A DNA stretch of 64,000 nucleotides from assembly GCF_056746865.1 (NCBI RefSeq), contig NZ_CM163382.1, one strand, 5' to 3'. This document shows positions 2,279-60,478 of this stretch, in pieces. Each line of letters starts with the position of its first letter. Position 1 is the stretch's first letter. The translations under genes were made by a program, and so were the position numbers. The notes beneath the pieces are model-generated. The model searched no databases and was not told the DNA's origin. It worked only from the letters and a program-made list of their open reading frames with translations.

Positions 2279-3499
2279 CTATAAAGCCTGCAGCAAGCTG
2301 GCGAGTTCTCGGTTAATCACCTGTTGGTTAAAATCGTGTTCGACTTTTTCGCGCGCACGTTTGACGACCGGCGCCAGTTCGTCGGTGTCCAGTTGGCTAA
2401 ACGCCGCCAGTCGTTGCGCCAGTGCGCGAGCATCGTTCTCAGGCACCAGCCAGCCGGATTTGTCGGCCTCAACCAGTTCTGGTATTCCGCTATGCAGAGT
2501 TGAAACAACCGGAATGCCGACCGCCATTGCTTCCATTAGTGCCACCGGAATGCCTTCCATATCACCATCCGCACCTGTAACCGATGGCAACAGGAAGACA
2601 TCCGCGTCGTCGAGCATCGCTTTCACTTCGTGGCTCGGTTTAAAGCCCGGCATCTCTACCACATCTTCCAGTTGATATTGTTCGATGAGGGTGCGCAGGC
2701 GTCGTTCCCACGGGCCAATGCCGAGGATGCGATAGCGAAATGCCACGCCCTGCTCTTTCAACTGACGGCAGGCTTCGATCGCCACATGCAGGCCTTTTTT
2801 CTCGGTTAAGCGTGCGACGGAAATGATTTCCAGCGGCGTTGCGGGCGCTTTCACCGGACGCGGGCTAAAACGCGTCATGTCCACGCCCATGCGCGATACG
2901 GCGATTTTTTCCCTCGGGCAGCCCATTTTTTGCAGCCTTCCGGCCCACAGATTGCTTATTGGTAACATCAGGTCGCCACGGCGAAACAGTTGTTGATATT
3001 CGGGAGTGTAGTGGTTGAGCACTTCCCGACTGGAGATATCAATACCGTGGAAGATAGTGGCAATTTTGCCGCGAATGACACCCAGTTCGCGTAGTTTTGC
3101 CGCGGTTACCCCAGCAGGGCCAAAATGAGCGATAAACACATCGGCATGAAACGGTGTTGCGACCTGGCCGCAAATGGCAGACAAAATCAGGTTCCGCGAC
3201 TCGGCACCATAGCGTTTGAGGTTAAGCGCCTGCCAGGTATTTTTACGATGAATGCCGCGTAAGGTCTGACTGGCTCGGTGGCGCAGTTTCGCCACTTTGC
3301 CCGTAGGTTCGTCCTGTAACCAGCGGGTTCTGGCGGCAAGGTTGTATTTCGTCCATGCCGCGTGGGTGTTCTGGGTGTCGCCTTTTTGCAGCGCGACAAT
3401 CTCCACCTCAAAGCCCATATCAATAAACGCGGTAATTTGATTGAGGATGAAGGTTTCTGACGACAGCGGAAATTTCAATAAGAAGAAGCCGACCTTCAT
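2279..3499 (-). CDS. wcaL: colanic acid glycosyltransferase WcaL (GT4-like, 406 aa)
   Basis: ORF track 406 aa; glycosyltransferase-like C-terminal region; synteny. Confidence 0.9.
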
Positions 3500-4776: not shown

Positions 4777-4848
4777 TTTTTCCTCATAAATTTGATGCCA
4801 GGTGAGGCTATGTTTGTTGTGTTCGTTGCCGGAACCGAAAACAGCCAT

Positions 4849-9148: not shown

Positions 9149-9237
9149 ATCGTTACCCTTTTTCAGGCAATAGTTGGCCCTGACCGAAGCGGCCAATTTT
9201 GTTTTTGTCGTTATTTACACCGCGGTTTCGCATTCAT

Positions 9238-9340
<103 letters not shown>

Positions 9341-10779: not shown

Positions 10780-12003
10780 TTATCCCCGAATATCATTTAT
10801 AAATTGACGTAACACGTTCTCTTTATCGAGCGTGCGTTCGGCATATTCACGTGCCACCGTGTTGTGTTTGGGCAGCAGGAGCGCCTGACGAATCCCCGCC
10901 ACCAGCGCCTCGACCGATTCCGGTTCAACGCAAACCGCAATGCCCGGAAAGGTTTCGCAAAGCTGTCCCAGTTCTGTGTGGGCTTCTGCAGTAATCACCG
11001 CGTTACCGCCTACCGCCAGAATATTGGTCAGTTTCGACGGCAATACGGCATCTGCCGCGCCGCGTTTTTGCACCACCAGATGGCAATCCCCCATCTTCAG
11101 CAGTGCGGGTAAAGCGTCATACGATTGCAGCGGGAAGAATTGCATGTTGTGCAGTCCACGCTGCTGCGCCATTTTTTCCAGCCGCGCTTTGCCGCCGCCC
11201 TGCCCGACAATGGCAAAAATCAGCGGTTCATCACGCAGGCGTTCGGCAGCTTCAATAACGTTTTCCAGCCCCTGCTTTTCACCAATATTGCCGGAGTAAA
11301 GAATGATTTTTTTGTTATCCGGCAGGCCAAGCTGGTTACGAAGTGCATCAACATCGGCGTCTGCAACATGCTGAAAACGGGCGATTTCCGACCAGTTGGG
11401 GAAGAAGATGACGTTTTCCGCCGCCACGCCTTTATCGATGGCTTTATTCATCATCGAACGCGAAATCGTGGAGACGTTATCGACGTTATGCAGTCCGCTA
11501 CGTTCGAACGCCGTCGCCAGCTGTGCCACTTTGCCGCCTTTGCCTTTTCCGGCAAGGCCCAGCCCCAGCATGGCATCTACTTCGTAATCCTGAATATGCA
11601 GCACGGTACGCGCACCAGAGAGTTTCGCCAGCAGGCGCATTCCCGGCGTGCAAAACAGCGTTGGCACCACGCCGATAATGCGATCCGGCTTCCAGCGACG
11701 TTGCGCCATCAGAGGAAAGAAACTGCTGACGGCAAAACTGCCGAGATGTAACAGACGTTTCAGGGTGCTCGGCTGTTTTGGCACGTACAGCGGGCAGCGC
11801 CACACCGTGGCGGCCCCCTCTTCTCGTTTGTACCGCCAGGCGGAATAGTTCTCGCCCACCTGCCATTGCGGGTAGTAAGGCGGTGCGGTAATAACCCGCA
11901 CCTCATGACCTTGTGCCGCCAGCCATTCCACCATCTCTCCGGTGTATTTGCCGATGCCGGTTAACTCCGGCGAGTAGTTAATGCCGTAGACCAGTATTTT
12001 CAT
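10780..12003 (-). CDS. wcaI: colanic acid glycosyltransferase WcaI (407 aa)
   Basis: ORF track 407 aa; GT4-like; synteny. Confidence 0.9.
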
Positions 12004-12482
12004 AATCCGGGTACTCCGGCACGCTTCTCAGCGAGAAAATAGGCGCGGCTGTTAGCGTGAACATTGTCACTGGCGAGCAGTGCGTCCGGCGTCAGCCAGC
12101 GGTAATCGTCATGCTGCTCATCCGGCAGTAACAGCTCTTCTTCCGCTACTCTGAAGCGAAAACCGAGCACCACATAGTGAGTGGTGAAATCCTTGCCGGA
12201 GAAGTTATCGTCATAAAAGTGCTGCCAGACACCGTAGAACTGGCCTGCTGTTATCGGCAGACGCAGCCCCAGTTCCGCCATCGTCAGCCGCTCAAATGCG
12301 GCTTCCAGCGTTTCATCTTTCTGCACGCGCCCTCCCGGCACAAACCAGTAACCCTGCGCCGGGCGGTTGGTTCTTTTGCCAAGCAGAAACTCGCCGCGAC
12401 TGTTCTCGACAATAAAGTCGAGAGAGACAAGCGGTGTGGAGTGCACTACCGTGGCAAAGTCTTCCTGACGTAAAAACATCAT
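12000..12482 (-). CDS. gmm: GDP-mannose mannosyl hydrolase (Nudix), Gmm/WcaH/NudD
   Basis: ORF track 160 aa; two tandem ATG codons at the start, so the true start may be 12479; 4-nt overlap with wcaI. Confidence 0.9.
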
Positions 12483-13447
12483 TACCCCCGAAAGCGGTCT
12501 TGATTCTCAAGGAACCACTGGTAAGTGCTGGCAAGCCCCGCTTCCAGTGAGATTTCGTGATACCAGCCAAGCTGATGCAGGCGCGTCACATCCAGCAGTT
12601 TGCGCGGCGTACCATCCGGTTTGCTGGCATCAAAAACCACCCGACCTTTGTAACCCACCACTTTGGCGATGGTTTGCGCCAGCTCGCGGATAGTGCAGTC
12701 AACGCCCGTGCCGACGTTAATGTGCGACAGCATCGGTTGGGTGTTCTCCAGCCAGACTTCGTGCGCCAGCTCCATCACATGAATGCTTGCCGCCGCCATA
12801 TCATCGACGTGCAGAAATTCACGCATCGGTGTACCGCTGCCCCATACCACCACGTCCGGCGCATTCTGTGCCGTCGCCTCGTGGAAGCGACGCAGCAATG
12901 CTGGGATCACATGCGAATTACTCGGGTGGAAGTTGTCATGCGGCCCGTACAGGTTGGTCGGCATGACCGAGCGGTAATCGCGTCCGTACTGACGGTTGTA
13001 AGATTCGCACAGTTTGATCCCGGCGATTTTGGCAATGGCGTAAGGCTCGTTGGTCGGCTCCAGCGTGCCCTGCAATAACTCGCTTTCTGCCATCGGCTGT
13101 TTTGCCAGTTTCGGGTAGATGCAGGACGATCCAAGAAACAGCAGTTTGTTCACGTCGTTCTGATGCGCGGCGTGAATGATGTTGCTCTCAATCATCATGT
13201 TCTGGTAGATGAAATCCGCCGGATAGGTGTTGTTGGCAACAATGCCGCCCACTTTCGCCGCCGCCAGATAGACCTGGTCAATGCGTTCGCTGGCAAAGAA
13301 ATCATGCACCGCGCGGCTGTCCAGCAGGTTCAGTTCATCGCGGGTACGTAATACCAGCTCCACATCACCGCGCTGTTCGAGCTGCCGCTTGATGGCAGAA
13401 CCGACCATCCCGCGATGGCCAGCGATAAAAATGCGTTGTTTACTCAT
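12482..13447 (-). CDS. fcl: GDP-L-fucose synthase Fcl/WcaG (321 aa)
   Basis: ORF track 321 aa; N-terminal NAD(P)-binding motif ([14 protein letters not shown]); synteny after gmd. Confidence 0.92.
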
Positions 13448-15917: not shown

Positions 15918-17135
15918 TTACCTCGTAATATTTAACGCTTTTCGCAAAATAAACGGACAGACGATTAAAAATGCATATTCCGGGCTAAATATCGAACCGG
16001 TAAAAAACAGCGATACCGGAGTAAAAAGATATAATTGCACGCGAAAATTGCGGTTATCACCAAAAGCGTTGATCATCATTTTTATCACTTTCCCCATGTA
16101 CCACAGCGATAAAAACACCGCGAACCAGGAAAAATAAATAATCAGCAGATACAAACCATTGTCTATGGTTTTTCCGACATCCGCACCGTTAAATATTCCG
16201 AATGATGCGACATATTCATAAAGTGAGCCAAATCTGACTACACCGTCAATATGGGTCAAAGAATAACCGACCATCACCAGCGGACCGACAATACGATAAT
16301 ACGATGACGATCCTTCCGTACCTAAATCGCCCAGACGGGTGGAAATATAAGGAAACGCGATTACCACACCAACCAGGAATACAGCCAGAGAAATCAATGC
16401 TAACGGTAACTTTTTCTTAATCGCCTCTTTATTCAGATATTGAAATGCCCACTCCAGCAAATAAAACAGGATAAAGGTCATAACCCCTGAAAACGATCCG
16501 GATAATATTATCCCTGCGAGAATCATAGCATCGGTTTTAGGCGTTTTGATACCAAACTGTTTGATGCTGAGCCAAATTGAGATTAATGCCAGAGCGAAAA
16601 ATGCCGGTTCGAAATAAAGTGCTGTCGTGCGCTTGCCGCCGAATTTAATGAAATTCAGCACATAGCTGTTGCTGTAAATCAGATATTTCGAAATCGACTC
16701 CATAATACTGCTGCCACCGGTGAGGATAATTTGCGCCATCTCCACCGCCGCCAGCGCCACCACCAGCCCGACCACCAGATAAAAGAAACGTAATATCTTG
16801 CGATGGTTGTGTGGCGAAATCGTTTTAAAGCGAATACTCCACACCATGCCAATAATGATCACAATATAGACAAACAGCATGGTTGATGTGACGTATTTAC
16901 TGGCATCCAGCGACTGACCAAACAGATAGTTAAACGCCGTGAGTCCCGCACCAATCCCTAAGGCAATCATCAATTTTTTAACGCTGATGCGTTCTAAAAA
17001 CAGCAGTAACAAGACAGGTAAAAAAGTGACGATGGTGATGGGGAAACTTTCGCCAAGCTGGGCGATTTTGACGTTAACCAGCAGGTAAATCAGCGGCAGC
17101 AACAGGTAGCTACAGATTCTGATAGAAGTTGACAT
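15918..17135 (-). CDS. wcaD: colanic acid polymerase WcaD (Wzy-like, 405 aa)
   Basis: ORF track frame 15918..17207; start placed at ATG (complement 17133-17135) giving [19 protein letters not shown]...; polytopic membrane protein; AT-rich gene. Confidence 0.88.
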
Positions 17136-18327
17136 ACTCCTCCAGCATCTGTTGTCCACTGTAGGCGGCGCGGCTGCGTTGGCTGAACTCAGCCAGCGTG
17201 GTACCAAATATCGCCTGCGCGATTTCCGGTTTGCTTAACTGCACCAGTTGCAGCACGTCTTCTTCGCTGACGGTTTTACCGCCGGATTTTTGCAACACTT
17301 CCCGCGCCGCATCGCTATGGGTGGCAATCACCGGCACGCCAATCGATAGCGCCTCACACAAAATCAGCGGGTAGTTATCGACGCGAGAACTGAACACCAG
17401 CGCATCCATCTGATTGAGCGCGCTCATCAGCTTACGTTTGTCGGTTTCAAAGCCGTGATTAACCACGTTGCCAGCGGTGAACGGCGAAAACTTACCAAAG
17501 GTATGCAGTTCGATTTTGTCGCCCAGCGCCATCATCTCGCGTACCAGTTGCTGGTTAGTTTTGCCGTCGTAACGCAGATCATGCGCCACCACCGCGATTT
17601 TCGGCTTGCCCTGGGTTTCGCGCACCGGAGGCAAGTCCGCCAGAATTGCTTCGGTTGCCATATCAATACCATTATTGATAATCCGGCAACGCCCTGGCCC
17701 GTACAGACTATTGAAAGCGTCAGCCACATGCTGGCTGGGGGAAATAAACTGACAGCCCAGCGCCAGCATCTCGCGGAATAACTGGCGTTTACCCGCCACC
17801 AGCTGGTGCGCGCGATCAATCTTCACCGGCGGATAGTTATTTAAGGTCGGGCATTTCTGGCAGCCCGTTTTCCAGCCTTCACAACCGTCAGTAAAGGCGC
17901 AGCGCCCGGTAACGCTCCAGTGGTCGTGCAGCGTCCAGACCAGAGTGACATCCGGTTTGTGGTTTTTCACCTTTTCGCAAAAGCGCACCACGCTCTTGAG
18001 ATTCAACCAGTAGCTGTGCAGCACATGAAAATGCAGGACCACCGGACCCGGTGTGCGAGTAATGGTGCGATATAACTCATTGAAATTGCCAAACAGATCG
18101 CGATTAAACAGACGAAACAGTGCAATGTTCGCCATCGCGGTCATCCGCGGCGTATGTTTGATGACCTGCGGATAGTTCTGATGGCTGACGCTCTCTTTGC
18201 CGCCTTTGCCGTAACCGTAGACAAAATGTGACGCCAGCCCCTGTTGCAGCGCACGCTGGTGGAGATCTAACGCCACACCTGCTGCCCCGCCTTCCGCCAG
18301 TCGCACATTAAATTGCAGAATATTCAT
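17110..18327 (-). CDS. wcaC: colanic acid glycosyltransferase WcaC (405 aa)
   Basis: ORF track 405 aa; overlaps wcaD start by 26 nt; synteny. Confidence 0.9.
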   Translation of the reverse strand: MNILQFNVRLAEGGAAGVALDLHQRALQQGLASHFVYGYGKGGKESVSHQNYPQVIKHTPRMTAMANIALFRLFNRDLFGNFNELYRTITRTPGPVVLHFHVLHSYWLNLKSVVRFCEKVKNHKPDVTLVWTLHDHWSVTGRCAFTDGCEGWKTGCQKCPTLNNYPPVKIDRAHQLVAGKRQLFREMLALGCQFISPSQHVADAFNSLYGPGRCRIINNGIDMATEAILADLPPVRETQGKPKIAVVAHDLRYDGKTNQQLVREMMALGDKIELHTFGKFSPFTAGNVVNHGFETDKRKLMSALNQMDALVFSSRVDNYPLILCEALSIGVPVIATHSDAAREVLQKSGGKTVSEEDVLQLVQLSKPEIAQAIFGTTLAEFSQRSRAAYSGQQMLEEYVNFYQNL

Positions 18328-23678: not shown

Positions 23679-23690
23679 CACGCTACCGCC
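23679..23690 (-). promoter_or_regulatory. ops element (GGCGGTAGCGTG on the transcribed strand) within a JUMPstart-type leader of the wza operon; RfaH recruitment site
   Basis: Plus strand reads cacgctaccgcc; reverse complement is the 12-nt ops consensus GGCGGTAGnnTG; ~180 nt upstream of the wza start codon. Confidence 0.6.
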
Positions 23691-23903
23691 CCTGGCTTTT
23701 TAGCTACCAATACACTGATTTAGTTTAATTTTTCACACCCTCTCAGCATGCAGTCGTTGATGAGAAAGGGTTATTACGGAAATTAACTTCCGAATATAAG
23801 GTGACATTATGGTAATTGAATATTGGCTTTCCAATAATGCAGGAGGAAGTGTTACAGCTAACGGAATAGCAGGCAAGGTAACAATTCGGCAATTGGCTAT
23901 TTT

Positions 23904-25816: not shown

Positions 25817-26155
25817 ATGAGAAAAAAGCTGGCTTTTCTTGATACCAGTCTTGACGATTTACGCGCATTTCCAGAATCGTCTCGACAGGAAATTGGCTAT
25901 CAACTCGACAGGATCCAACAAGGGTTAAACCCATACGACTGGAAACCTTTTTCAACTATCGGCCCTGGTGTGCGAGAGATTCGTACTCGCGATGCTGATG
26001 GGATCTATCGCGTCATGTATGTCGCAAAATTTGAAGAAGCGGTTTACGTATTGCATTGTTTTCAAAAGAAAACACAGACTACCAGTCAATCGGATATTGA
26101 TTTAGCCAAACGACGCTATAAAGAACTTGTTCAGGAGCGGAAAAATGAAAATTGA
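25817..26155 (+). CDS. type II toxin, RelE/ParE superfamily, HigB / phage Gp49-like (112 aa)
   Basis: ORF track 112 aa; small basic protein with C-terminal block VYVLHCFQKKTQTTSQSDIDLAKRRY typical of HigB/Gp49-like toxins; toxin-first order with an overlapping downstream HTH gene. Confidence 0.75.
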   Translation: MRKKLAFLDTSLDDLRAFPESSRQEIGYQLDRIQQGLNPYDWKPFSTIGPGVREIRTRDADGIYRVMYVAKFEEAVYVLHCFQKKTQTTSQSDIDLAKRRYKELVQERKNEN

Positions 26156-26435
26156 AACCTTTGATAGTGTGTGGGATGCGGTGAGTGACACCCCTGAACA
26201 AGCGGAAAATATGCGGATCCGTGCCGAACTTGTTACGATCATTAATAACTGGATTGAACAACAAGGGTTTAGCCAGGCTCAGGCAGCGTCTGCTTTAGGG
26301 GTCACTCAACCTCGCATATCTGAACTTGCCAGAGGTAAAATCCAGATCTTTAGTATCGATAAATTGATCACCATGATGGCTCATGCAGGGTTGCATATTC
26401 AACGTATTGAAGTTCAATATCCACATGCTGCTTAG
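26145..26435 (+). CDS. HTH XRE-family antitoxin (HigA-like, 96 aa)
   Basis: ORF track frame 26127..26435; start placed at ATG 26145 (MKIETFDSVW...), overlapping the toxin stop by 11 nt (ATGAAAATTGA); helix-turn-helix region QAQAASALGVTQPRISELARGK. Confidence 0.75.
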   Translation: MKIETFDSVWDAVSDTPEQAENMRIRAELVTIINNWIEQQGFSQAQAASALGVTQPRISELARGKIQIFSIDKLITMMAHAGLHIQRIEVQYPHAA

Positions 26436-38378: not shown

Positions 38379-39140
38379 TCATTCTGTCCACAGCGCCAGT
38401 GCCAACGTTTTATCATCATCGGTACGCTCGTTTACCGCCGGGCCGGACAAAAACTGCTTTAACAATTCAGGTAATAAATCGAGTTGTTCCTGCGTTGCTG
38501 ACGCCAGCCCATTGAAAAACGGGGTAAAGAAAGGCACATGGGGAGAATTATCCAGCATATTTAACGCCAGCCGCTGGATACCATCCGTAAATGCTGCAAC
38601 TTTGTGCGCACGCTCAGTGCTGGTGAAAGTTTCCAGTCTGGAAACCGCATCTTCATCGGTAATGAAGTGCGTCATGTTGGCATATTCACCCACCATCGGC
38701 GTGAGCGGCAGTTGCAGACCGTGCCCCAAATCTACCACCACGCCGCCATCGCCAATCTGCATAATCAAGGTGCCGTCAGGCGATGAAATCAGTCCCAGAA
38801 ATGTGCAGGCAAAATCGCGAACCGCTAATTCTTTGGCTTCCGCCTCGGCAAAAAGTCGCTGACGAATGGTCAGCACAATATCCGTGGCGAGGACATCATT
38901 AAGCCCCAATTCCCCGCCCTGCACTTTTTGCGACATATAAGCCATCGCTTCATTGACGGCGAGCATCGCGCCTTCGCCACCCTGCGAGACACTGCCTGCG
39001 CCATCAGCGACAAATACCGACAATAATGGCTGCTGGTCATTTAACCAGGCAACCTGCATCTGGCAGGCATCCTGGCAAGGCAAGTCCGCGCTGATGTGCG
39101 ACGTTCCAACGGTTGATGCATAGACCAGACGCCAGCTCAC
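38379..39140 (-). CDS. yegK: PP2C-family Ser/Thr protein phosphatase YegK/PphC (253 aa)
   Basis: ORF track 253 aa; PP2C-like N-terminus ([20 protein letters not shown]). Confidence 0.9.
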
Positions 39141-39796: not shown

Positions 39797-39976
39797 AAGA
39801 AATCCTTTCTTAGAGAATTATTGAGGTCCGGTATCATACCGATTGCAATAATGAAATAAGAGCAAACGAAGAAACTTTCAGAATTAGGCCCGGCGGCGCA
39901 GAAAATTTTGCTATTCGCCTCGCAAGAACGGAGAGCCGTCGATTGACACTAAGGGCGGAGTGACATAATTTCAGGA

Positions 39977-40120
39977 GTGAGGGTTAGGGAGAGGTTTCCC
40001 CCTCCCCCTGGTGTTCTTAGTAAGCCTGGAAGCTAATCACTAAGAGTATCACCAGTATGATGACGTGCTTCATCATAACCCTTTCCTTATTAAAAGCCCT
40101 CTTCTCCGGGAGAGGGTTTC
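39977..40120 (+). ncRNA. sibA: Sib-family antisense sRNA (antitoxin of ibs copy 1); ends approximate
   Basis: Plus-strand TTGACA (39943-39948) with downstream -10-like cataat; GC hairpin gccctcttctccgggagagggt + T-run at ~40096-40120; fully covers the ibs ORF on the opposite strand. Confidence 0.5.
40017..40076 (-). CDS. ibsA: type I toxin Ibs family, 19 aa: MMKHVIILVILLVISFQAY
   Basis: Reverse complement of 40017-40076 translated by hand; hydrophobic Ibs-type peptide; too short for the ORF track. Confidence 0.8.
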   Translation of the reverse strand: MMKHVIILVILLVISFQAY

Positions 40121-40312
40121 CCGTTTCAGCGTCCCGCTGAAATCGTCGGCTTACCTCCTTTCGCCCTGAATGCAGTCTATCGCTAACGCGTGAACAAAAT
40201 AGTTTCCTCTGTGATTATTGCGTAACGACTCGCAAAGAATATTTGCTGGCAGGATCGCAGACTGCAAAGCCTGCAGATTGACAATCTTATCGTGAAGGCA
40301 TACTTTCAGGAG

Positions 40313-40446
40313 TGAGGGTAGAGCGGGGTTTCCCCCGCCCTGGTAGTCTTAGTATGCTGGGTAGCTAATCACTAAGAGCACCACGATGATGAGTATCTTC
40401 ATCATGACCCTTTCCTTATTTAAGGCCCCTTCCTCGGGAGGGGCTT
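40313..40446 (+). ncRNA. Sib-family antisense sRNA (copy 2); ends approximate
   Basis: TTGACA at 40278-40283, 17-nt spacer, -10-like tacttt; terminator hairpin ggccccttcctcgggaggggc + ttt at 40423-40446. Confidence 0.5.
40348..40404 (-). CDS. type I toxin Ibs family, 18 aa: MMKILIIVVLLVISYPAY
   Basis: Hand translation of reverse complement; IbsB-like. Confidence 0.75.
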
Positions 40447-40640
40447 TCCCGTTTCAGCGTCCCGCTAAAATCGTCGGCTTACCTCCTTTCGCCCTGAATG
40501 CAGTCTATCGCTAACGCGTGAACAAAATAGTTTCCTCTGTGATTATTGCGTAACGACTCGCAAAGAATATTTGCTGGCAGGATCGCAGACTGCAAAGCCT
40601 GCAGATTGACAATCTTATCGTGAAGGCATACTTTCAGGAG

Positions 40641-40775
40641 TGAGGGTAGAGCGGGGGTTCCCCCGCCCTGGTAGTCTTAGTAAGCCGGGAAGCTTATGAC
40701 TAAGAGCACCACGATGATGATCCACTTCATCATGACCCTTTCCTTATTTAAGGCCCCTTCCTCGGGAGGGGCTTT
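40641..40775 (+). ncRNA. Sib-family antisense sRNA (copy 3); ends approximate
   Basis: Same promoter and terminator architecture as copy 2 (TTGACA 40606-40611; hairpin ~40752-40775). Confidence 0.5.
40677..40733 (-). CDS. type I toxin Ibs family, 18 aa: MMKWIIIVVLLVISFPAY
   Basis: Hand translation of reverse complement; IbsB-like. Confidence 0.75.
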   Translation of the reverse strand: MMKWIIIVVLLVISFPAY

Positions 40776-40968
40776 CCCGTTTCAGCGTCCCGCTGAAATC
40801 ATCGGCTTACCTCCTTTCGCCCTGAATGCAGTCTATCGCTGACTTGCGGATAAAATAGTTTCACATGTGATTATTGTGTAACGTCTCGCAAAGAATATTT
40901 GCTGGCAGGATCGCAGACTGCAAAGCCTGCAGATTGACAATCTTATCGTGAAGGCATACTTTCAGGAG

Positions 40969-41103
40969 TGAGGGTAGAGCGGGGTTTCCCCCGCCCTGGT
41001 AGTCTTAGTATGCTGGGTAGCTAATCACTAAGAGCACCACGATGATGAGTAGCTTCATCATGACCCTTTCCTTATTTAAGGCCCCTTCCTCGGGAGGGGC
41101 TTT
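40969..41103 (+). ncRNA. Sib-family antisense sRNA (copy 4); ends approximate
   Basis: Same architecture (TTGACA 40934-40939; hairpin ~41080-41103). Confidence 0.5.
41005..41061 (-). CDS. type I toxin Ibs family, 18 aa: MMKLLIIVVLLVISYPAY
   Basis: Hand translation of reverse complement; IbsB-like. Confidence 0.75.
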   Translation of the reverse strand: MMKLLIIVVLLVISYPAY

Positions 41104-41339: not shown

Positions 41340-42587
41340 ATGAAAGGCAGTTATAAATCCCGTTGGGTAATCGTAATCGTGGTGGTTATCGCCGCCATCG
41401 CCGCATTCTGGTTCTGGCAAGGCCGCAATGACTCCCGGAGTGCAGCCCCAGGGGCGACGAAACAAGCGCAGCAATCGCCAGCGGGTGGTCGCCGTGGTAT
41501 GCGTTCCGGCCCATTAGCCCCGGTTCAGGCGGCGACCGCCGTAGAACAGGCAGTTCCGCGTTACCTCACCGGGCTTGGCACCATTACCGCCGCTAATACC
41601 GTTACGGTGCGCAGCCGCGTGGACGGCCAACTGATAGCGTTACATTTCCAGGAAGGCCAGCAGGTCAAAGCAGGCGATTTACTGGCAGAAATTGACCCAA
41701 GCCAGTTCAAAGTTGCATTAGCACAAGCCCAGGGCCAACTGGCAAAAGATAAAGCCACGCTTGCCAACGCCCGCCGTGACCTGGCGCGTTATCAACAACT
41801 GGTAAAAACCAATCTCGTATCTCGTCAGGAGCTGGATGCCCAACAGGCGCTGGTCAGTGAAACCGAAGGCACCATTAAGGCTGATGAAGCAAGCGTCGCC
41901 AGCGCGCAGCTGCAACTCGACTGGAGCCGCATCACCGCACCAGTCGATGGTCGCGTTGGTCTCAAGCAGGTTGATGTTGGTAACCAAATCTCCAGTGGTG
42001 ATACCACCGGGATTGTGGTGATCACCCAGACGCACCCTATCGATTTAGTCTTTACCCTGCCGGAAAGCGATATCGCTACCGTAGTACAGGCGCAAAAAGC
42101 CGGAAAACCGCTGGTTGTTGAAGCCTGGGATCGCACCAACTCGAAGAAATTAAGTGAAGGCACGCTGTTAAGCCTCGATAACCAAATCGATGCCACTACC
42201 GGTACGATTAAAGTGAAAGCACGCTTTAATAATCAGGATGATGCACTGTTTCCCAATCAGTTTGTTAACGCGCGTATGTTAGTCGACACCGAACAAAACG
42301 CCGTGGTGATCCCCACCGCCGCCCTGCAAATGGGCAATGAAGGCCATTTTGTCTGGGTGCTGAATAGCGAAAACAAGGTCAGCAAACATCTGGTGACGCC
42401 GGGCATTCAGGACAGTCAGAAAGTGGTGATCCGCGCAGGTATTTCTGCGGGCGACCGCGTAGTGACGGACGGAATTGATCGCCTGACCGAAGGGGCGAAA
42501 GTGGAAGTGGTAGAAGCTCAAAGCGCCACCACTTCGGAAGAGAAAGCCACCAGCCGCGAATACGCGAAAAAAGGAGCACGCTCCTGA
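41340..42587 (+). CDS. mdtA: RND efflux membrane fusion protein MdtA (415 aa)
   Basis: ORF track frame 41193..42587; start placed at ATG 41340 giving [23 protein letters not shown]. Confidence 0.9.
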
Positions 42588-45500
42588 TGCAGGTGTTACC
42601 CCCGAGCAGCACAGGCGGCCCGTCGCGCCTGTTTATTATGCGTCCTGTCGCCACCACGCTGCTGATGGTGGCGATCTTACTCGCCGGGATTATCGGTTAT
42701 CGTGCCCTGCCCGTTTCGGCGCTGCCGGAAGTGGACTATCCAACCATTCAGGTGGTCACCCTCTACCCAGGTGCCAGCCCAGATGTCATGACCTCTGCCG
42801 TTACCGCACCGCTCGAACGCCAGTTCGGGCAGATGTCCGGCCTGAAACAGATGTCGTCGCAAAGTTCCGGCGGTGCGTCAGTTATCACTTTGCAGTTCCA
42901 GCTAACATTACCGCTGGATGTCGCCGAGCAGGAAGTGCAGGCCGCGATTAACGCTGCGACCAACCTGTTGCCGAGCGATCTGCCTAACCCGCCGGTTTAC
43001 AGCAAAGTGAACCCGGCAGATCCGCCAATCATGACGCTCGCTGTCACCTCAACCGCCATGCCGATGACGCAAGTGGAAGATATGGTGGAAACCCGCGTCG
43101 CGCAGAAAATCTCGCAGATTTCCGGCGTCGGCCTGGTGACGCTTTCCGGCGGCCAGCGTCCGGCTGTTCGCGTCAAACTTAACGCCCAGGCGATTGCCGC
43201 CCTCGGCCTGACCAGCGAAACCGTGCGCACCGCCATTACCGGTGCTAACGTTAACTCGGCTAAAGGTAGCCTCGACGGCCCTTCCCGTGCGGTCACGCTT
43301 TCCGCGAACGACCAGATGCAATCCGCCGAAGAATATCGCCAGCTAATCATCGCCTACCAGAACGGCGCACCGATTCGTCTGGGCGATGTCGCAACCGTAG
43401 AGCAAGGTGCAGAAAATAGCTGGCTTGGGGCGTGGGCAAATAAAGAACAGGCCATTGTGATGAATGTTCAGCGCCAGCCCGGTGCTAACATTATCTCCAC
43501 CGCCGACAGCATCCGGCAGATGCTGCCACAGCTCACCGAGAGTCTGCCGAAATCGGTGAAGGTGACGGTACTTTCTGACCGTACCACCAATATCCGCGCA
43601 TCGGTCAACGATACCCAGTTTGAACTGATGATGGCTATCGCGCTGGTAGTCATGATTATCTACCTGTTTTTGCGCAATATTCCGGCGACCATCATTCCTG
43701 GCGTCGCAGTGCCGCTGTCGTTAATTGGCACCTTTGCGGTTATGGTGTTTCTCGATTTTTCAATCAATAACCTGACGCTGATGGCGTTAACTATCGCCAC
43801 CGGATTCGTGGTCGATGACGCCATCGTGGTGATCGAAAACATTTCCCGCTATATCGAAAAAGGCGAAAAACCGCTGGCGGCGGCGCTCAAAGGCGCAGGT
43901 GAAATCGGTTTTACCATTATCTCGCTGACCTTCTCACTGATTGCGGTGTTGATCCCACTGCTGTTTATGGGCGATATCGTCGGGCGACTGTTCCGCGAAT
44001 TTGCTATTACACTGGCGGTAGCGATTTTGATCTCAGCCGTGGTGTCGCTGACCCTGACGCCGATGATGTGCGCACGGATGCTCAGCCAGGAGTCGCTGCG
44101 TAAACAGAACCGCTTCTCCCGTGCCTCAGAGAAAATGTTCGAAAGGATAATCGCCGCCTATGGTCGCGGACTGGCGAAAGTGCTGAATCATCCGTGGCTG
44201 ACTTTAAGCGTAGCGCTCAGCACGCTGCTGCTTAGCGTTCTCTTGTGGGTGTTTATTCCGAAAGGTTTCTTCCCGGTACAGGACAACGGCATTATTCAGG
44301 GTACTTTGCAGGCACCGCAATCCAGCTCCTTTACCAATATGGCCCAGCGGCAACGCCAGGTCGCGGATGTGATTTTGCAGGATCCGGCAGTGCAAAGTCT
44401 GACCTCATTTGTTGGCGTTGATGGCACTAACCCGTCGCTGAACAGTGCGCGTTTGCAGATCAACCTCAAACCGTTGGATGAACGTGATGATCGGGTGCAA
44501 AAAGTCATCGCCCGTCTGCAAACGGCGGTGGATAAAGTGCCGGGCGTCGATCTCTTCCTGCAACCAACGCAGGACCTGACCATCGATACTCAGGTCAGCC
44601 GCACCCAGTACCAGTTTACCTTGCAGGCCACGTCACTGGATGCGCTCAGTACCTGGGTGCCACAGTTGATGGAAAAACTCCAGCAACTGCCACAGCTTTC
44701 TGATGTCTCCAGCGACTGGCAGGACAAAGGGCTGGTGGCGTATGTCAATGTTGATCGCGACAGCGCCAGCCGTCTGGGGATCAACATGGCGGATGTCGAT
44801 AACGCCCTGTACAACGCGTTTGGTCAGCGGCTGATTTCCACTATTTATACTCAGGCTAACCAGTATCGCGTGGTGCTGGAACACAACACTGAAAATACCC
44901 CAGGCCTCGCGGCGCTGGATACCATTCGCCTGACCAGCAGCGACGGTGGCGTGGTGCCGTTAAGCTCAATTGCCAAAATTGAGCAGCGTTTTGCGCCGCT
45001 CTCCATCAACCATCTGGATCAGTTCCCGGTAACGACCATCTCCTTTAACGTGCCAGATAACTATTCGCTGGGCGATGCGGTGCAGGCGATTATGGACACC
45101 GAAAAGACGCTGAATCTGCCGGTGGATATCACCACGCAGTTCCAGGGCAGCACCCTCGCCTTCCAGTCGGCGCTGGGCAGCACTGTCTGGCTGATTGTCG
45201 CGGCGGTGGTGGCGATGTATATCGTACTCGGCATTCTTTACGAAAGCTTTATTCACCCGATCACCATTCTCTCGACGTTGCCAACGGCAGGGGTCGGCGC
45301 ACTGCTGGCGTTGCTGATTGCCGGTAGCGAACTGGATGTAATCGCCATTATCGGCATTATTTTGCTGATCGGTATCGTGAAGAAGAACGCCATCATGATG
45401 ATCGACTTCGCGCTGGCTGCTGAGCGCGAGCAAGGCATGTCGCCGCGCGATGCAATCTACCAGGCTTGTCTGTTGCGTTTTCGTCCGATCCTGATGACTA

Positions 45501-45709
45501 CTCTGGCGGCTCTGCTTGGCGCGTTGCCGCTGATGTTAAGTACCGGGGTCGGCGCGGAACTGCGTCGTCCGTTAGGTATCGGCATGGTCGGCGGTCTGAT
45601 AGTCAGCCAGGTGCTGACGCTGTTTACCACGCCGGTGATTTATTTGCTGTTCGACCGCCTGGCATTGTGGACCAAAAGCCGCTTTGCTCGTCATGAAGAG
45701 GAGGCGTAA
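42587..45709 (+). CDS. mdtB: RND efflux permease MdtB (1040 aa)
   Basis: ORF track 1040 aa; AcrB-family; start overlaps mdtA stop by 1 nt (TGATG). Confidence 0.93.
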
Positions 45710-48700
45710 GTGAAGTTTTTTGCCCTCTTCATTTACCGCCCGGTGGCGACGATTTTACTGTCGGTCGCCATTACCCTGTGCGGCATACTGGGCTTCCGTA
45801 TGCTGCCGGTCGCCCCACTGCCGCAGGTCGATTTTCCGGTGATTATGGTCAGCGCCTCGCTGCCCGGTGCGTCACCAGAAACAATGGCGTCTTCCGTTGC
45901 CACGCCGCTGGAACGTTCGCTTGGGCGCATTGCCGGGGTCAGTGAAATGACCTCCAGCAGTTCGCTCGGCAGCACGCGCATTATTTTGCAGTTTGATTTT
46001 GACCGCGATATCAACGGCGCAGCGCGCGATGTGCAAGCGGCGATCAACGCCGCGCAAAGTTTGCTGCCCAGCGGGATGCCAAGCCGTCCGACCTATCGCA
46101 AAGCGAACCCGTCGGATGCGCCAATTATGATCCTGACGCTAACATCCGATACTTATTCGCAAGGTGAACTGTACGATTTTGCCTCGACGCAGCTGGCTCC
46201 GACGATTTCGCAAATCGACGGTGTCGGTGATGTCGATGTTGGCGGCAGCTCGCTACCTGCGGTGCGCGTCGGGCTGAACCCGCAGGCGCTGTTTAATCAG
46301 GGCGTCTCGCTGGACGACGTACGCACTGCCATCAGCAATGCCAACGTGCGTAAACCGCAAGGGGCGCTGGAAGATGGCACTCACCGCTGGCAGATCCAGA
46401 CTAACGATGAACTGAAAACTGCCGCTGAATATCAGCCGCTGATTATTCATTACAACAACGGCGGCGCGGTTCGTCTGGGCGATGTAGCGACGGTGACCGA
46501 CTCAGTGCAGGATGTGCGCAACGCCGGGATGACCAACGCCAAACCGGCTATTTTGCTGATGATCCGCAAGCTGCCGGAAGCCAATATTATCCAGACGGTA
46601 GACAGCATCCGGGCAAAATTACCGGAGTTGCAGGAAACCATTCCGGCGGCGATTGATCTGCAAATTGCTCAGGATCGCTCCCCCACCATTCGCGCCTCGC
46701 TGGAAGAAGTCGAGCAAACGCTGATTATCTCGGTGGCGCTGGTGATTCTGGTGGTCTTTTTATTCCTGCGCTCGGGTCGCGCCACTATTATTCCCGCCGT
46801 TGCGGTGCCGGTTTCGCTGATTGGTACGTTTGCGGCGATGTACCTGTGCGGATTCAGTCTCAATAATCTTTCGTTAATGGCGCTCACCATCGCTACTGGT
46901 TTCGTGGTGGATGACGCCATCGTGGTGCTGGAAAACATCGCCCGTCATCTGGAGGCGGGGATGAAACCGCTACAGGCCGCGCTGCAAGGCACTCGCGAAG
47001 TCGGTTTTACGGTGCTGTCGATGAGTCTGTCACTGGTGGCGGTGTTCCTGCCGCTGCTGTTGATGGGCGGATTGCCGGGCCGACTGTTACGCGAATTTGC
47101 CGTGACGCTTTCTGTCGCCATTGGGATTTCGTTGCTGGTTTCCCTGACGCTAACGCCGATGATGTGCGGCTGGATGCTAAAAGCCAGCAAGCCGCGCGAG
47201 CAAAAGCGACTACGTGGTTTTGGTCGCATGTTGGTAGCCCTGCAACAAGGCTATGGTAAGTCGCTGAAATGGGGGCTTAATCATACCCGTCTGGTGGGCG
47301 TGGTGTTGCTTGGCACCATTGCGCTGAATATCTGGCTATATATCTCGATCCCGAAAACCTTCTTCCCGGAGCAGGACACTGGCGTACTGATGGGCGGGAT
47401 ACAGGCGGATCAGAGTATTTCGTTTCAGGCGATGCGCGGCAAGTTGCAGGATTTTATGAAAATTATCCGTGACGATCCGGCGGTGGATAATGTCACCGGC
47501 TTTACCGGCGGTTCGCGGGTGAACAGTGGGATGATGTTTATCACCCTCAAGCCACACGACGAACGCAGCGAAACGGCGCAGCAAATTATCGACCGTCTGC
47601 GCGTAAAGCTGGCGAAAGAACCGGGGGCGAATCTGTTCCTGATGGCGGTACAGGATATTCGCGTTGGTGGGCGTCAGTCGAACGCCAGCTACCAGTACAC
47701 GTTGTTATCCGACGACCTGGCGGCACTGCGCGAATGGGAGCCGAAAATCCGCAAAAAACTGGCGACGTTGCCGGAACTGGCGGACGTGAACTCCGATCAG
47801 CAGGATAACGGCGCGGAGATGAATCTGGTTTACGACCGCGACACCATGGCACGGCTGGGAATCGACGTGCAGGCCGCCAACAGCCTGTTAAATAACGCCT
47901 TCGGTCAGCGGCAGATCTCGACCATTTACCAGCCGATGAACCAGTATAAAGTGGTGATGGAAGTGGATCCGCGCTATACCCAGGACATCAGTGCGCTGGA
48001 AAAAATGTTCGTTATCAATAACGAAGGAAAAGCGATCCCGCTGTCGTATTTCGCTAAATGGCAACCGGCGAATGCTCCGCTGTCGGTGAATCATCAGGGA
48101 TTATCGGCAGCCTCGACCATTTCGTTTAACCTGCCGACCGGGAAATCGCTCTCGGACGCCAGTGCGGCGATCGATCGCGCAATGACCCAGCTTGGTGTGC
48201 CTTCGACGGTACGCGGCAGTTTTGCCGGCACGGCGCAGGTGTTCCAGGAGACGATGAACTCGCAGGTGATTCTGATTATCGCCGCCATCGCCACGGTGTA
48301 TATCGTGCTGGGTATCCTTTACGAGAGTTACGTACATCCGCTGACGATTCTCTCCACCCTGCCCTCGGCGGGCGTTGGAGCGCTGCTGGCGCTGGAGCTG
48401 TTCAATGCCCCGTTCAGCCTAATCGCCCTGATAGGGATCATGCTATTAATCGGCATCGTGAAGAAAAACGCCATTATGATGGTCGATTTTGCGCTTGAAG
48501 CCCAACGGCACGGTAACCTGACGCCGCAGGAAGCTATTTTCCAGGCCTGTCTGCTGCGTTTTCGCCCGATTATGATGACTACCCTGGCGGCGCTGTTTGG
48601 TGCGCTGCCGCTGGTGTTGTCGGGCGGTGACGGCTCGGAGCTGCGCCAACCCCTGGGGATCACCATTGTCGGCGGTCTGGTAATGAGCCAGCTTCTGACG

Positions 48701-48787: not shown

Positions 48788-50203
48788 ATGACAGATCTTC
48801 CCGACAACACCCGCTGGCAATTGTGGATTGTGGCTTTCGGCTTCTTTATGCAGTCGCTGGACACCACCATCGTCAACACCGCGCTTCCCTCAATGGCGCA
48901 AAGCCTCGGGGAAAGTCCGTTGCATATGCACATGGTCATTGTCTCTTATGTGCTGACCGTGGCGGTGATGTTGCCTGCCAGCGGCTGGCTGGCGGACAAA
49001 GTCGGCGTGCGCAATATTTTCTTTACCGCCATCGTGCTGTTTACTCTCGGTTCACTATTTTGCGCACTTTCCGGCACGCTGAACGAACTGTTGCTGGCAC
49101 GCGCGTTACAGGGCGTTGGCGGTGCGATGATGGTGCCGGTCGGCAGGTTGACGGTGATGAAAATCGTACCGCGCGAGCAATATATGGCGGCGATGACCTT
49201 TGTCACGTTACCCGGTCAGGTCGGTCCGCTGCTCGGTCCGGCGCTCGGCGGCCTGCTGGTGGAGTACGCGTCGTGGCACTGGATCTTTTTGATCAACATT
49301 CCGGTGGGAATTATCGGCGCGATCGCCACACTAATGTTAATGCCGAACTACACCATGCAGACGCGGCGCTTCGATCTCTCCGGCTTTTTATTGCTGGCGA
49401 TTGGCATGGCGGTATTAACCCTGGCGCTGGATGGCAGTAAAGGTACAGGTTTATCGCCGCTGGCGATTACTGGCCTGGTCGCTGTTGGCGTGGTAGCACT
49501 GGTGCTTTATCTGCTGCACGCCAGAAATAACAACCGCGCTCTTTTCAGTCTGAAACTGTTCCGCACTCGTACCTTTTCGCTGGGCCTGGCGGGGAGTTTT
49601 GCCGGACGTATCGGTAGCGGCATGTTGCCCTTTATGACACCGGTTTTCCTGCAAATTGGCCTTGGCTTCTCACCGTTTCATGCCGGACTGATGATGATCC
49701 CGATGGTGCTCGGCAGCATGGGGATGAAGCGAATTGTGGTACAGGTAGTGAATCGCTTTGGTTATCGTCGGGTACTGGTGGCAACCACGCTGGGTCTGTC
49801 GCTGGTCACCCTGTTGTTTATGACTACCGCTCTGCTGGGCTGGTACTACGTTTTGCCGTTCGTCCTGTTTTTACAAGGGATGGTCAACTCGACGCGTTTC
49901 TCCTCCATGAACACCCTGACGCTGAAAGATCTCCCGGACAATCTGGCGAGCAGCGGCAATAGTCTGCTGTCGATGATTATGCAATTGTCGATGAGTATCG
50001 GCGTCACCATCGCCGGGCTGTTGCTGGGACTTTTTGGTTCGCAGCATGTCAGCGTCGACAGCGGCACCACACAAACCGTCTTTATGTACACCTGGCTTAG
50101 CATGGCGTTTATCATCGCCCTTCCGGCGTTCATCTTTGCCAGAGTGCCGAACGATACGCATCAAAATGTAGCTATTTCGCGGCGAAAAAGGAGCGCGCAA
50201 TGA
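48788..50203 (+). CDS. mdtD: MFS transporter MdtD (471 aa)
   Basis: ORF track 471 aa; polytopic; ATG immediately after the mdtC stop. Confidence 0.9.
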
Positions 50204-51603
50204 AGTTCTGGCGACCCGGTATTACCGGCAAACTGTTTCTGGCGATTTTCGCCACCTGCATTGTCTTGCTGATCAGTATGCACTGGGCGGTGCGTATCAG
50301 TTTTGAGCGTGGCTTTATTGATTACATCAAGCATGGTAATGAACAGCGATTACAACTGTTAAGTGATGCGCTTGGCGAGCAGTATGCGCAGCATGGCAAC
50401 TGGCGCTTCCTGCGCAACAATGATCGCTTTGTCTTTCAGATCTTGCGTTCATTTGAACACGATAATTCGGAAGATAAACCCGGCCCGGGTATGCCGCCGC
50501 ACGGCTGGCGTACCCAGTTCTGGGTGGTCGATCAAAACAACAAAGTGCTGGTTGGTCCGCGAGCGCCGATTCCACCTGACGGTACACGGCGACCCATTCT
50601 GGTCAACGGTGCGGAAGTGGGTGCGGTGATTGCCTCCCCTGTTGAGCGACTGACCCGCAATACTGATATCAATTTCGATAAACAACAGCGGCAAACCAGC
50701 TGGCTGATTGTTGCTCTGGCAACGTTACTCGCGGCACTCGCTACCTTTCTGCTGGCGCGTGGTTTGCTGGCACCGGTAAAACGGCTGGTGGACGGCACGC
50801 ACAAACTGGCGGCGGGCGATTTCACTACCCGCGTAACGCCCACCAGTGAAGATGAACTGGGCAAACTGGCGCAAGACTTCAACCAGCTTGCCAGCACGCT
50901 GGAGAAAAACCAGCAAATGCGGCGCGATTTTATGGCCGATATTTCTCACGAACTGCGTACGCCATTAGCGGTGCTGCGCGGTGAACTGGAAGCCATTCAG
51001 GATGGCGTGCGTAAATTCACGCCGGAGACGGTGGCGTCTTTACAGGCGGAGGTCGGTACACTGACCAAACTGGTTGACGATCTCCATCAGTTGTCGATGT
51101 CTGATGAAGGCGCTCTCGCCTATCAAAAAGCACCGGTAGATTTGATCCCACTGCTGGAAGTGGCGGGCGGCGCATTTCGCGAACGATTCGCCAGCCGTGG
51201 CCTGAAACTGCAATTTTCCCTGCCAGACAGTATTACCGTATTTGGCGATCGCGACCGTTTAATGCAGTTATTCAATAACTTACTGGAAAACAGCCTGCGC
51301 TACACTGACAGCGGCGGTAGCCTGAAAATCTCTGCCGGGCAGCACGACAAAACGGTGCGACTGACCTTTGCCGACAGCGCGCCGGGCGTCAGTGACGATC
51401 AGCTACAAAAATTGTTTGAACGTTTTTATCGCACCGAAGGTTCCCGCAACCGAGCCAGCGGCGGTTCCGGGCTGGGGCTGGCGATTTGCCTGAACATTGT
51501 TGAAGCACATAATGGTCGCATTATTGCTGCCCATTCGCCTTTTGGCGGGGTAAGCATTACAGTAGAGTTACCGCTGGAACGGGATTTACAGAGAGAAGTA
51601 TGA
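50200..51603 (+). CDS. baeS: envelope-stress sensor histidine kinase BaeS (467 aa)
   Basis: ORF track 467 aa; H-box [11 protein letters not shown]; 4-nt overlap with mdtD. Confidence 0.92.
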
Positions 51604-56384: not shown

Positions 56385-57164
56385 CTACACCGTAATTAAT
56401 TTTACCCGTGTCTTCTGCAATGCCAGTTTATCCACCTCTGACACGGCATCATCGGTAATAATAATGTCAATTTTTTCGATTGGGAGTACCTGATTAAAAC
56501 CGCGACGGTTAAATTTCGATGAATCGAGAACGGCAATCACTTTATTAGCGGCTGTGACCATCGCCCCGCTAATCGAATAACCTTCATTAAAGGTCGTAAT
56601 ACCATTAACCGCATCAATACCATCAGCACCGACAAACATTAAATCGGCATTAATATCCTGCAATGAACGCTCGGCAATGGAACCATGCATCGAGCGCGTT
56701 TTATGGCGGACGGTGCCACCACAGACGACCAGAGTAATGTCTTTATTTTCGGAAAGGGCAAACGCCGCCGGGAGACTGTTGGTAATCACCGTGATATTTT
56801 TGGCGGTCATTAAACCTTCGGCGATAAGCATTGTCGTACTTCCGCTGTCGAGAATAACGGTCATCCCTTCGTGGATCATTTTGACTGCCGCTTGCGCTAT
56901 TCTGTTTTTTGGCGCACTGGCGAGCTGAAATCGCTCTTTAAACCCAACTTCCTGGGTCTCGGTTTCACTATTACCGGACATTATTTTCGCCGCACCGCCA
57001 TGAAAGCGCGTAACCACGCCTTTTTGTTCGAGAAAGCGCAAATCGGCACGGATTGTCGCTTCCGAGGCAGCAAATACTCCCGCCAGATCCTGAACAAGCA
57101 CGGTTCCCTGTTCATTCACTAATTGGATGATCTTATTCCTTCGCTCGAATGAATTCATCGTCAT
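56385..57164 (-). CDS. gatR: DeoR-family galactitol operon repressor GatR, intact (259 codons)
   Basis: ORF track 259 aa; N-terminal HTH (RRNKIIQLVNEQGTVLVQDLAGVF) + DeoR sugar-binding domain; downstream of gatD. Confidence 0.88.
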   Translation of the reverse strand: MTMNSFERRNKIIQLVNEQGTVLVQDLAGVFAASEATIRADLRFLEQKGVVTRFHGGAAKIMSGNSETETQEVGFKERFQLASAPKNRIAQAAVKMIHEGMTVILDSGSTTMLIAEGLMTAKNITVITNSLPAAFALSENKDITLVVCGGTVRHKTRSMHGSIAERSLQDINADLMFVGADGIDAVNGITTFNEGYSISGAMVTAANKVIAVLDSSKFNRRGFNQVLPIEKIDIIITDDAVSEVDKLALQKTRVKLITV

Positions 57165-58304: not shown

Positions 58305-58351
58305 AAAAACTCCTGATTGTTAAGGGGGATAAACTCCCCCTCAGGTAAAAA

Positions 58352-59707: not shown

Positions 59708-59710
59708 AGG

Positions 59711-59995
59711 TCACCCCTGTAAGATAGTCAGAATTTTATTTTGTAATGCTTCGATACCGACACCAGAAACAAAAGGCATGCCGTGAACTAACGGAATATC
59801 GCCAAAACTACGGTCAACTTTGGCGGTAGTACATATCAAATGCACGCCATCCATATAGGTCTCTATTTCATTAACCCGACACTGGATTAATTCAACAGGA
59901 ATATTATGACTCTGACACAACTCTTTAATTTCTTCCGCCGCCATCGTAGAGGTCGCAACCGCGCCTCCGCAAGCGACAATAATCTTGCGTTTCAT
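59711..59995 (-). CDS. gatB: PTS galactitol-specific EIIB GatB (94 aa)
   Basis: ORF track 94 aa beginning [16 protein letters not shown] (active-site Cys). Confidence 0.93.
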
Positions 59996-60025
59996 AAATA
60001 GTCCTTTTTATTGTTACAGAGGGAT

Positions 60026-60478
60026 TTATTCGTCTGAATCTAAAACATACTTTGTGAAGTATTCCTTTAACTGAGTTTCAGGAAGAGTAATTAGTGTCTC
60101 GACGATCTCGGGCTGTTGTAACTTGCCAAATAAACAGCGTAAAAGTTTCAATTGCTGCTGCGGATTTTCCACAATCAACGCAATAACCAACGATACCGCC
60201 ACGTCATTATCATCATCCGCTTGCTGAAAATGAACTTTATTTGTTGGCCTTAACAGATAAATGGCTGACGACTTAGCATGAATCGCCTCACAATGCGGTA
60301 TTGCAATGGCGTGCTGCTCAAGCATTATCCCGGTAGGGAATTCTGCTTCTCTGGCAATTAATGCCTGTGGCCAGGTATCATGAACCACACCTTTCGCGAG
60401 CATCTCATTACCGATATGGGTTAAAACTTCGCTACGATCGACAAAAGAAATTCCGCTACGAACAAACAGGTTAGTCAT
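60026..60478 (-). CDS. gatA: PTS galactitol-specific EIIA GatA (150 aa)
   Basis: ORF track 150 aa; synteny. Confidence 0.93.
   Translation of the reverse strand: MTNLFVRSGISFVDRSEVLTHIGNEMLAKGVVHDTWPQALIAREAEFPTGIMLEQHAIAIPHCEAIHAKSSAIYLLRPTNKVHFQQADDDNDVAVSLVIALIVENPQQQLKLLRCLFGKLQQPEIVETLITLPETQLKEYFTKYVLDSDE

Follow-up and report, generated by a model that had tools for sequence, protein, structure and literature searches.

Among described cases of translation of one gene depending on translation of its upstream neighbor, trpBA is an example of termination-reinitiation coupling at overlaps in which stop and start codons share an ATGA or TGATG motif. Further termination-reinitiation pairs with ATGA or TGATG junctions in Escherichia coli are hyfHI, astDB, ydbH/ynbE, as well as menDH. 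When native E. coli pairs with −4 or −1 spacing were tested, four of five were coupled (PMC6728339), the wca and mdt-bae pairs considered here lying outside the tested set. In the synthetic operons of Tian and Salis, coupling fell as the overlap lengthened and was absent at −25 nt, as described in a 2025 review that favors the unfolding type of coupling for long overlaps (PMC12548453). Unfolding systems include the coat-lysis pair of phage MS2, genes VII/IX of phage f1, and E. coli rpmI-rplT and atpHA. The same review explains the MS2 overlap (−50 nt) by RNA unfolding and the coat-lysis overlap of phage fr (−38 nt) by back-scanning (PMC12548453). Among prokaryotic unidirectional overlaps, those of 4 nt (about 45%) and 1 nt (about 15%) are the two commonest classes, and overlaps longer than 6 nt are dominated by "phase 1," or 2 mod 3, the class to which an overlap of 26 nt belongs (PMC3887535).

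The window that we analyzed is a stretch of 64,000 nt from RefSeq assembly GCF_056746865.1 (contig NZ_CM163382.1). The gene pairs compared in it lie on the same strand within contiguous operon annotation (wca and mdtABCD-baeSR), and co-transcription of both gene sets is established. The gene order is as follows.

Minus strand, from wcaM (galF-proximal) to wza: the wca cluster within the window.
After wza: yegH, asmA, dcd, udk, dgcE, alkA, yegD–L, and the ibs/sib repeats.
Plus strand: mdtABCD-baeSR, then yegPQRS, the gat operon, and fbaB.

The window is E. coli chromosome but not that of K-12; its wca part is 100% identical to strains AR13438 and F11, and the part from yegI to mdtA is 100% identical to M7424 and others. 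The junction between wcaC and wcaD has the following features; positions with a sign are numbered relative to the wcaD start.

17110–18327, minus strand: wcaC coding sequence, colanic acid glycosyltransferase, 405 aa, TAG stop at 17112–17110.
15918–17135, minus strand: wcaD coding sequence, colanic acid polymerase of the Wzy type, 405 aa, ATG at 17135–17133.
17110–17135, minus strand: overlap of the wcaC 3′ end with the wcaD 5′ end, 26 nt, out of frame, the wcaD frame being the wcaC frame +1.
17138–17143, minus strand: wcaD Shine-Dalgarno sequence GGAGGA, within wcaC codons Leu-Glu-Glu, invariant in 81 sequences with synonymous sites included.
17138–17151, minus strand: CAGATGCTGGAGGA, positions −16 to −3, the longest invariant run in a 2.4-kb wcaC-wcaD alignment of 76 species.
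17112–17152, minus strand: predicted mRNA hairpin, positions −17 to +23, about 41 nt and about 15 bp.

An earlier note on this DNA had reported the 26-nt overlap, and its coordinates prove exact, with the ATG and the TAG both read directly from the sequence. The layout is identical in the RefSeq annotation of AR13438 (100% identical here) and of K-12 MG1655 (b2056/b2057), and the K-12 junction sequence is that of the window. The entire wcaD initiation region, consisting of the Shine-Dalgarno sequence GGAGGA, a short spacer, and the ATG, lies within the last ~45 nt of wcaC. The spacer is short in that the ATG stands 2 nt past GGAGGA, or 3 nt past the GGAGG core, and dual-frame reading extends over the first eight and two-thirds codons of wcaD. 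A promoter and terminator scan of 16600–17700 returned nothing that exceeds shuffle expectation, and thus neither an internal promoter nor a terminator at the junction. Likewise, no known RNA family was matched there by Rfam, whether the whole window was searched at gathering thresholds or 16900–17350 at E ≤ 1.

Compared with the described systems, the overlaps in this window fall into distinct kinds. Six junctions, five with ATGA and mdtA/mdtB with TGATG, have a 4-nt or 1-nt stop-start overlap and exactly the geometry of hyfHI, astDB, ydbH/ynbE, as well as menDH. The wcaC/wcaD junction does not; at −26 it is outside the spacing range in which synthetic operons showed reinitiation coupling, and the overlap taken by itself would be poor evidence that wcaD is coupled. 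In its length, the wcaC/wcaD overlap is like those of the unfolding systems, and as in those systems a structure within the upstream reading frame is predicted to lock up the ribosome-binding site of the second gene, but the predicted hairpin here is local and small (~15 bp). As in phage fr, the downstream start lies a few tens of nucleotides upstream of the stop, a distance over which ribosomes have been shown to travel after termination, whereas wcaC/wcaD is part of a cellular operon and has a strong and conserved Shine-Dalgarno sequence. The overlap has the same phase (2 mod 3) as the long phase 1 overlaps of prokaryotes, yet it is unusually stable, keeping its length and a near-identical sequence across ~80 species.

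That stability was seen in a WcaD search restricted to one genome per species, which gave 80 Enterobacteriaceae loci at 82–94% protein identity from many genera (Salmonella, Citrobacter, Enterobacter, Lelliottia, Leclercia, Buttiauxella, Kosakonia, Cedecea, Trabulsiella, Mangrovibacter, Atlantibacter, and others). The position of the ATG, the TAG stop, and the 26-nt overlap are identical in 78 of 78 callable loci from these 80 species; in the two uncalled loci, the wcaC reading frame is cut by a contig end or interrupted, and the junction sequence is unchanged. UTME-10, the most divergent E. coli match, was discarded because its assembly has frameshifts in every gene. The −4 overlap of wcaB/wcaC is also kept, in 73 of 75 species, whereas the spacing from wcaD to the non-overlapping wcaE varies from −4 to +70 among species. 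The overlapped junctions thus appear evolutionarily frozen while ordinary spacers drift, and by this comparison the overlaps exceed chance.

Conservation at the wcaC/wcaD junction peaks around the wcaD start. In the 76-species alignment of wcaC and wcaD, the segment from −17 to +25 (17152–17110 of the window) has the lowest entropy whether the sliding window is 21 or 43 nt long. As a background, only 14 of 387 codons for invariant amino acids (3.6%) are themselves invariant, with 0 of 51 for Leu, 0 of 11 for Glu, and 1 of 3 for Gln. Just upstream of the wcaD ATG, where the sequence codes for WcaC only, Gln-CAG, Leu-CTG, and Glu-GAG are invariant, and the sole varying codon is the last Glu before the ATG (GAG or GAA), indicating that the GGAGGA Shine-Dalgarno sequence is preserved. 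Codon preference could also play a part in this, since CAG and CTG are preferred codons. Inside the overlap, the wcaC third positions +1, +4, +10, +13, +19, and +22 are invariant, a pattern expected only where there is a second reading of the sequence, in the wcaD frame. Because just four versions of the overlap proper encode both peptides, conservation inside it is fully explained by dual coding, and conservation from −8 to −3 is explained by the Shine-Dalgarno sequence alone. The invariance from −16 to −9, together with a ribosome-binding site that is predicted to be closed, points to the hairpin.

The predicted hairpin lies wholly inside the wcaC reading frame and therefore in the path of ribosomes translating wcaC. 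In the folding prediction, its 5′ arm, ACAGAU-(G)-CUGGAGGAGU, includes the Shine-Dalgarno sequence, its loop of 6–7 nt includes the AUG, and its 3′ arm is formed by wcaD codons 3–8, the pairing ending at +23, where the wcaC TAG (+23 to +25) begins. The minimum free energy of the 91-nt junction is −30.4 kcal/mol (z of −2.2). That of the 43-nt core is −16.7 kcal/mol in E. coli (z of −4.3) and −12.4 kcal/mol in the commonest variant (z of −2.0 versus shuffles). The core fold is predicted in all 19 sequence variants at −10.4 to −17.3 kcal/mol, with z values from −0.9 to −4.7 that are close to −1 in four rare variants, and the Shine-Dalgarno sequence is predicted to be 65–96% paired across the set. 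Opening the wcaD ribosome-binding site (−13 to +3) would cost 15.6 kcal/mol, the second highest value among the 26 starts of both operons, for which the median is ~6.

In the alignment of 81 sequences, standard pairs account for 98.3% of cells, compared with ~40% in slid controls, and the paired positions that vary are all compatible with the fold: U at −12 faces A or G at +18 (U:A to U:G), and G or A at −2 faces U at +8 (G:U to A:U). A covariation test of the hairpin on this alignment found no compensatory double changes; the block is nearly invariant, and since it hardly varies, covariation neither supports nor refutes the fold. As a null for hairpin stability, we used sequences that encode both the WcaC and the WcaD peptides. 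By stability, the native sequence ranks in the top 1–4% of 384 sequences encoding both of these same peptides, but only in the top 6–12% of the 64 alternatives that keep GGAGG. An outer helix that extends the minimum free energy structure (−27 to −19 with +25 to +33) was rejected, as variable positions break its pairs (at −23, U changes to C while the facing A is invariant) and it is absent from the RNAalifold structure.

Two further observations concern structure at these starts. At wcaD +5 to +7 (17128–17130, minus strand), E. coli has TCAACT, and 80 of 80 other species have TCTCGT or a near variant; the E. coli-specific change gives Thr3 versus Arg3 in WcaD and Asn versus Ser in WcaC, and its three adjacent substitutions add two Watson-Crick pairs atop the predicted hairpin (−16.7 versus −12.4 kcal/mol). 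In the mdt-bae operon, the ribosome-binding site of the mdtC GTG start (45680–45760, plus strand) is similarly closed, with a predicted cost of 15.8 kcal/mol to open. This GTG directly abuts the mdtB TAA and is preceded by the strongest Shine-Dalgarno sequence of the set, GAGGAGG, and mdtC may be a second structure-gated junction, in this case between two RND subunits.

Any coupling of wcaD to wcaC would more probably proceed by opening of the predicted hairpin, in which the wcaD Shine-Dalgarno sequence is held. On naked mRNA, the Shine-Dalgarno sequence would pair with wcaD codons 3–6 in the hairpin, and because it is sequestered, free 30S subunits would be poor at starting wcaD on the folded message. 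The hairpin would be melted by a ribosome that reaches the wcaC end; at termination, this ribosome would sit on the 3′ arm, with the Shine-Dalgarno sequence and the AUG exposed just behind it. Initiation at wcaD could then fall to a new 30S subunit, or to the terminating ribosome if it steps back ~20 nt to the Shine-Dalgarno sequence. Output of the polymerase WcaD would in this way be tied to, and held at or below, output of the glycosyltransferase WcaC. At the ATGA and TGATG junctions, ordinary termination-reinitiation coupling is most likely. We give roughly even odds to formation of the hairpin with a resulting dependence of WcaD synthesis on ribosomes that finish wcaC, and we lean toward the explanation as a whole, in which the overlaps are genuine and annotated, wcaD is coupled by hairpin unfolding, and the ATGA/TGATG pairs are coupled by termination-reinitiation.

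Alternatively, the overlaps could be by-products of neutral compaction, arising by 3′ extension after stop loss or by use of the first available start, with each downstream gene initiated independently at its own Shine-Dalgarno sequence, any coupling functionally unimportant, and the hairpin incidental. Simulations without selection reproduce the observed ranking of 4-nt over 1-nt over long overlaps (PMC3887535), the native E. coli −4 pair bioBF is uncoupled (PMC6728339), and the synthetic constructs at −25 nt gave no coupling (PMC12548453). The gat operon, in this same window, works without any overlap, and the hairpin itself shows no covariation and only a modest stability rank once the Shine-Dalgarno sequence is fixed. 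Compaction of this kind does not readily account, however, for overlap lengths that stay constant across many genera while the wcaD–wcaE spacing drifts, or for invariance at −16 to −9, which reaches beyond the Shine-Dalgarno sequence, and the predicted opening cost of 15.6 kcal/mol would make independent initiation of wcaD inefficient. We consider neutral compaction less likely but plausible, and continue to favor unfolding of the hairpin as the route by which wcaD would be coupled.

A 26-nt overlap could also be an artefact of a mis-annotated wcaD start, the true start being downstream (TTG at +33) or upstream (GTG at −24 or TTG at −72). Start misprediction is known to give rise to long overlaps, the spacer between the Shine-Dalgarno sequence and the ATG is unusually short for wcaD, and the longest wcaD reading frame begins at a TTG at 17207. 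The candidates are poorly conserved, however: the TTG at +33 (17102 in the window) is found in only 7 of 76 species, many species lack the two upstream candidates, and in two species there is no candidate upstream at all. The annotated ATG, in contrast, is conserved in 81 of 81 sequences, as is GGAGGA, which leaves it as the sole universal start, and RefSeq/PGAP and K-12 curation concur on it. The invariant wcaC third positions, set against the 3.6% background, also require a second reading frame across 0 to +25. We regard mis-annotation as very improbable and reject it on these comparative data, which strongly back the wcaD start. With purifying selection in both frames, an invariant ATG, TAG, and GGAGGA, and unconserved alternative starts, wcaC/wcaD is, from this comparative evidence, a real overlap of ancient origin that codes in both frames and whose initiation region is conserved. 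Least likely of all, with a chance that we consider negligible, is programmed frameshifting within the overlap to give a WcaC-WcaD fusion protein: the two frames do differ by +1 and share 26 nt, but TATGTCAACTTCTATCAGAATCTGTAG lacks both a slippery heptamer and a prfB-like shift site, there is no match to an Rfam frameshift element even at E ≤ 1, and the conserved Shine-Dalgarno sequence and ATG in the wcaD frame argue for initiation, so this reading is rejected.

The shorter overlaps, and the one junction whose class depends on the start chosen, are as follows.

3496–3499, minus strand: wcaK stop/wcaL start, ATGA, 4-nt overlap.
12000–12003, minus strand: gmm stop/wcaI start, ATGA, 4-nt overlap.
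18324–18327, minus strand: wcaB stop/wcaC start, ATGA, 4-nt overlap (−4 in 73 of 75 species).
42585–42589, plus strand: mdtA stop/mdtB start, TGATG, 1-nt overlap at 42587.
50200–50203, plus strand: mdtD stop/baeS start, ATGA, 4-nt overlap.
51600–51603, plus strand: baeS stop/baeR start, ATGA; a BaeR N-terminal peptide maps to this ATG.
12477–12484, minus strand: fcl stop and two tandem in-frame gmm ATGs, TAATGATG, the first ATG at 12482 and the second at 12479.
39137–39140, minus strand: yegL stop/pphC (yegK) start, GTGA, 4-nt overlap.
26145–26155, plus strand: RelE-like/HTH gene pair, 11-nt overlap.

All five of the 4-nt overlaps that had been claimed for the wca and mdt-bae operons are confirmed as ATGA (wcaK/wcaL, gmm/wcaI, wcaB/wcaC, mdtD/baeS, and baeS/baeR), and the last two entries above had been missed. 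Of the two 1-nt overlaps claimed, mdtA/mdtB stands, but fcl/gmm overlaps only if the first gmm ATG (12482) is used, and RefSeq uses the second. From the second ATG (RefSeq K-12 NP_416555.2 and PGAP), Gmm has 159 aa and there is a 2-nt gap from fcl; from the first, it has 160 aa and a 1-nt overlap with fcl results. The crystallized GDP-mannose mannosyl hydrolase constructs 1RYA and 2GT2 have the 160-aa MMFLRQ form, which shows the form that was cloned and not the native start. In the mdt-bae operon, mdtB/mdtC and mdtC/mdtD abut with zero gap. At most of the six ATGA/TGATG junctions there is a Shine-Dalgarno-like motif inside the upstream gene, and coupling, which the earlier note read from the overlaps, is a reasonable expectation at the −4/−1 pairs by analogy with the native pairs tested elsewhere. 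The description of such overlaps as routine for operons is apt, since they are present in the reference annotation and belong to ordinary classes. Less apt was the argument that the overlaps support the chosen start codons: the starts are sound, but the overlaps themselves lend them no support, which comes instead from independent conservation and peptide evidence. For baeR, a published N-terminomics table lists a 12-residue N-terminal peptide at the annotated ATG (PMC13245402 supplement); when six genes were queried in the TRAINSPOTTER supplements, only baeR was present.

The remainder of the window offers a contrast in architecture. The gat operon (gatYZABCD, 57264–62633, minus strand) has zero start/stop overlaps and spacers of 3–47 nt, so that overlaps are evidently not a feature of every operon; gatR (56385–57158) is intact. 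Within the wca cluster, the wzxC-wcaK spacer (4777–4848, minus strand) is 72 nt here and 275 nt in MG1655, and the cpsB-cpsG spacer (9149–9340, minus strand) is 192 nt here and 104 nt in MG1655, differences that are probably due to repetitive extragenic elements having been gained or lost. The cpsB-cpsG spacer contains an Rfam algC RNA motif just upstream of cpsG (9153–9202, minus strand, 77 bits), and a JUMPstart element lies upstream of wza (23679–23717, minus strand, 57 bits). Between yegH and asmA, a RelE/ParE-like toxin gene and an HTH gene (25817–26435, plus strand) form a pair that is absent at the corresponding position of K-12 MG1655. In AR13438, yegI/pphC also has a 4-nt overlap, and yegJ is missing. 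The Sib antitoxin RNA/Ibs toxin region consists of four tandem repeats of ~330 bp (39943–41076, plus strand, with the ibs genes opposite), which match Rfam RF00113 at 138–150 bits. Five ibs genes are present in AR13438 and two in K-12, so Sib/Ibs copy number is strain-variable.

The overlaps reported in the earlier note are already annotated and are ordinary operon architecture; they have little discovery value, being textbook operon compaction. The wcaD start is secure, and so is that of baeR through the published peptide. Expression of the colanic acid genes is Rcs-dependent. Start-site mapping by Ribo-RET or Onc112, the check that had been proposed, reaches expressed genes only, with 991 of 1153 such genes mapped; for wca it would therefore be uninformative under standard growth, and colanic acid induction is needed. 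Low temperature is one such inducing condition (PMC9143390).

A limited literature search returned no description of the wcaC/wcaD junction or its hairpin, nor of translational coupling of a Wzy-type polymerase. At best, the junction hairpin is a fresh candidate for the known unfolding kind of coupling. For deletion or refactoring of the wca cluster, as in colanic acid production, it matters that the last ~45 nt of wcaC contain the entire initiation region of wcaD; removing or recoding them, or introducing an early wcaC stop, is likely to change the level of WcaD. If the hairpin is indeed a gate, wcaC/wcaD would be a natural and deeply conserved case of coupling at about −25 nt, a geometry that was uncoupled in synthetic constructs. 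More tentatively, and with somewhat less than even confidence, the hairpin may be a translational gate that keeps WcaD silent without WcaC translation and otherwise at a fixed fraction of it, so setting the stoichiometry of polymerase to glycosyltransferase in a capsule-like pathway; it would then be a family-wide case of unfolding-type coupling at a −26 overlap that had not been described before.
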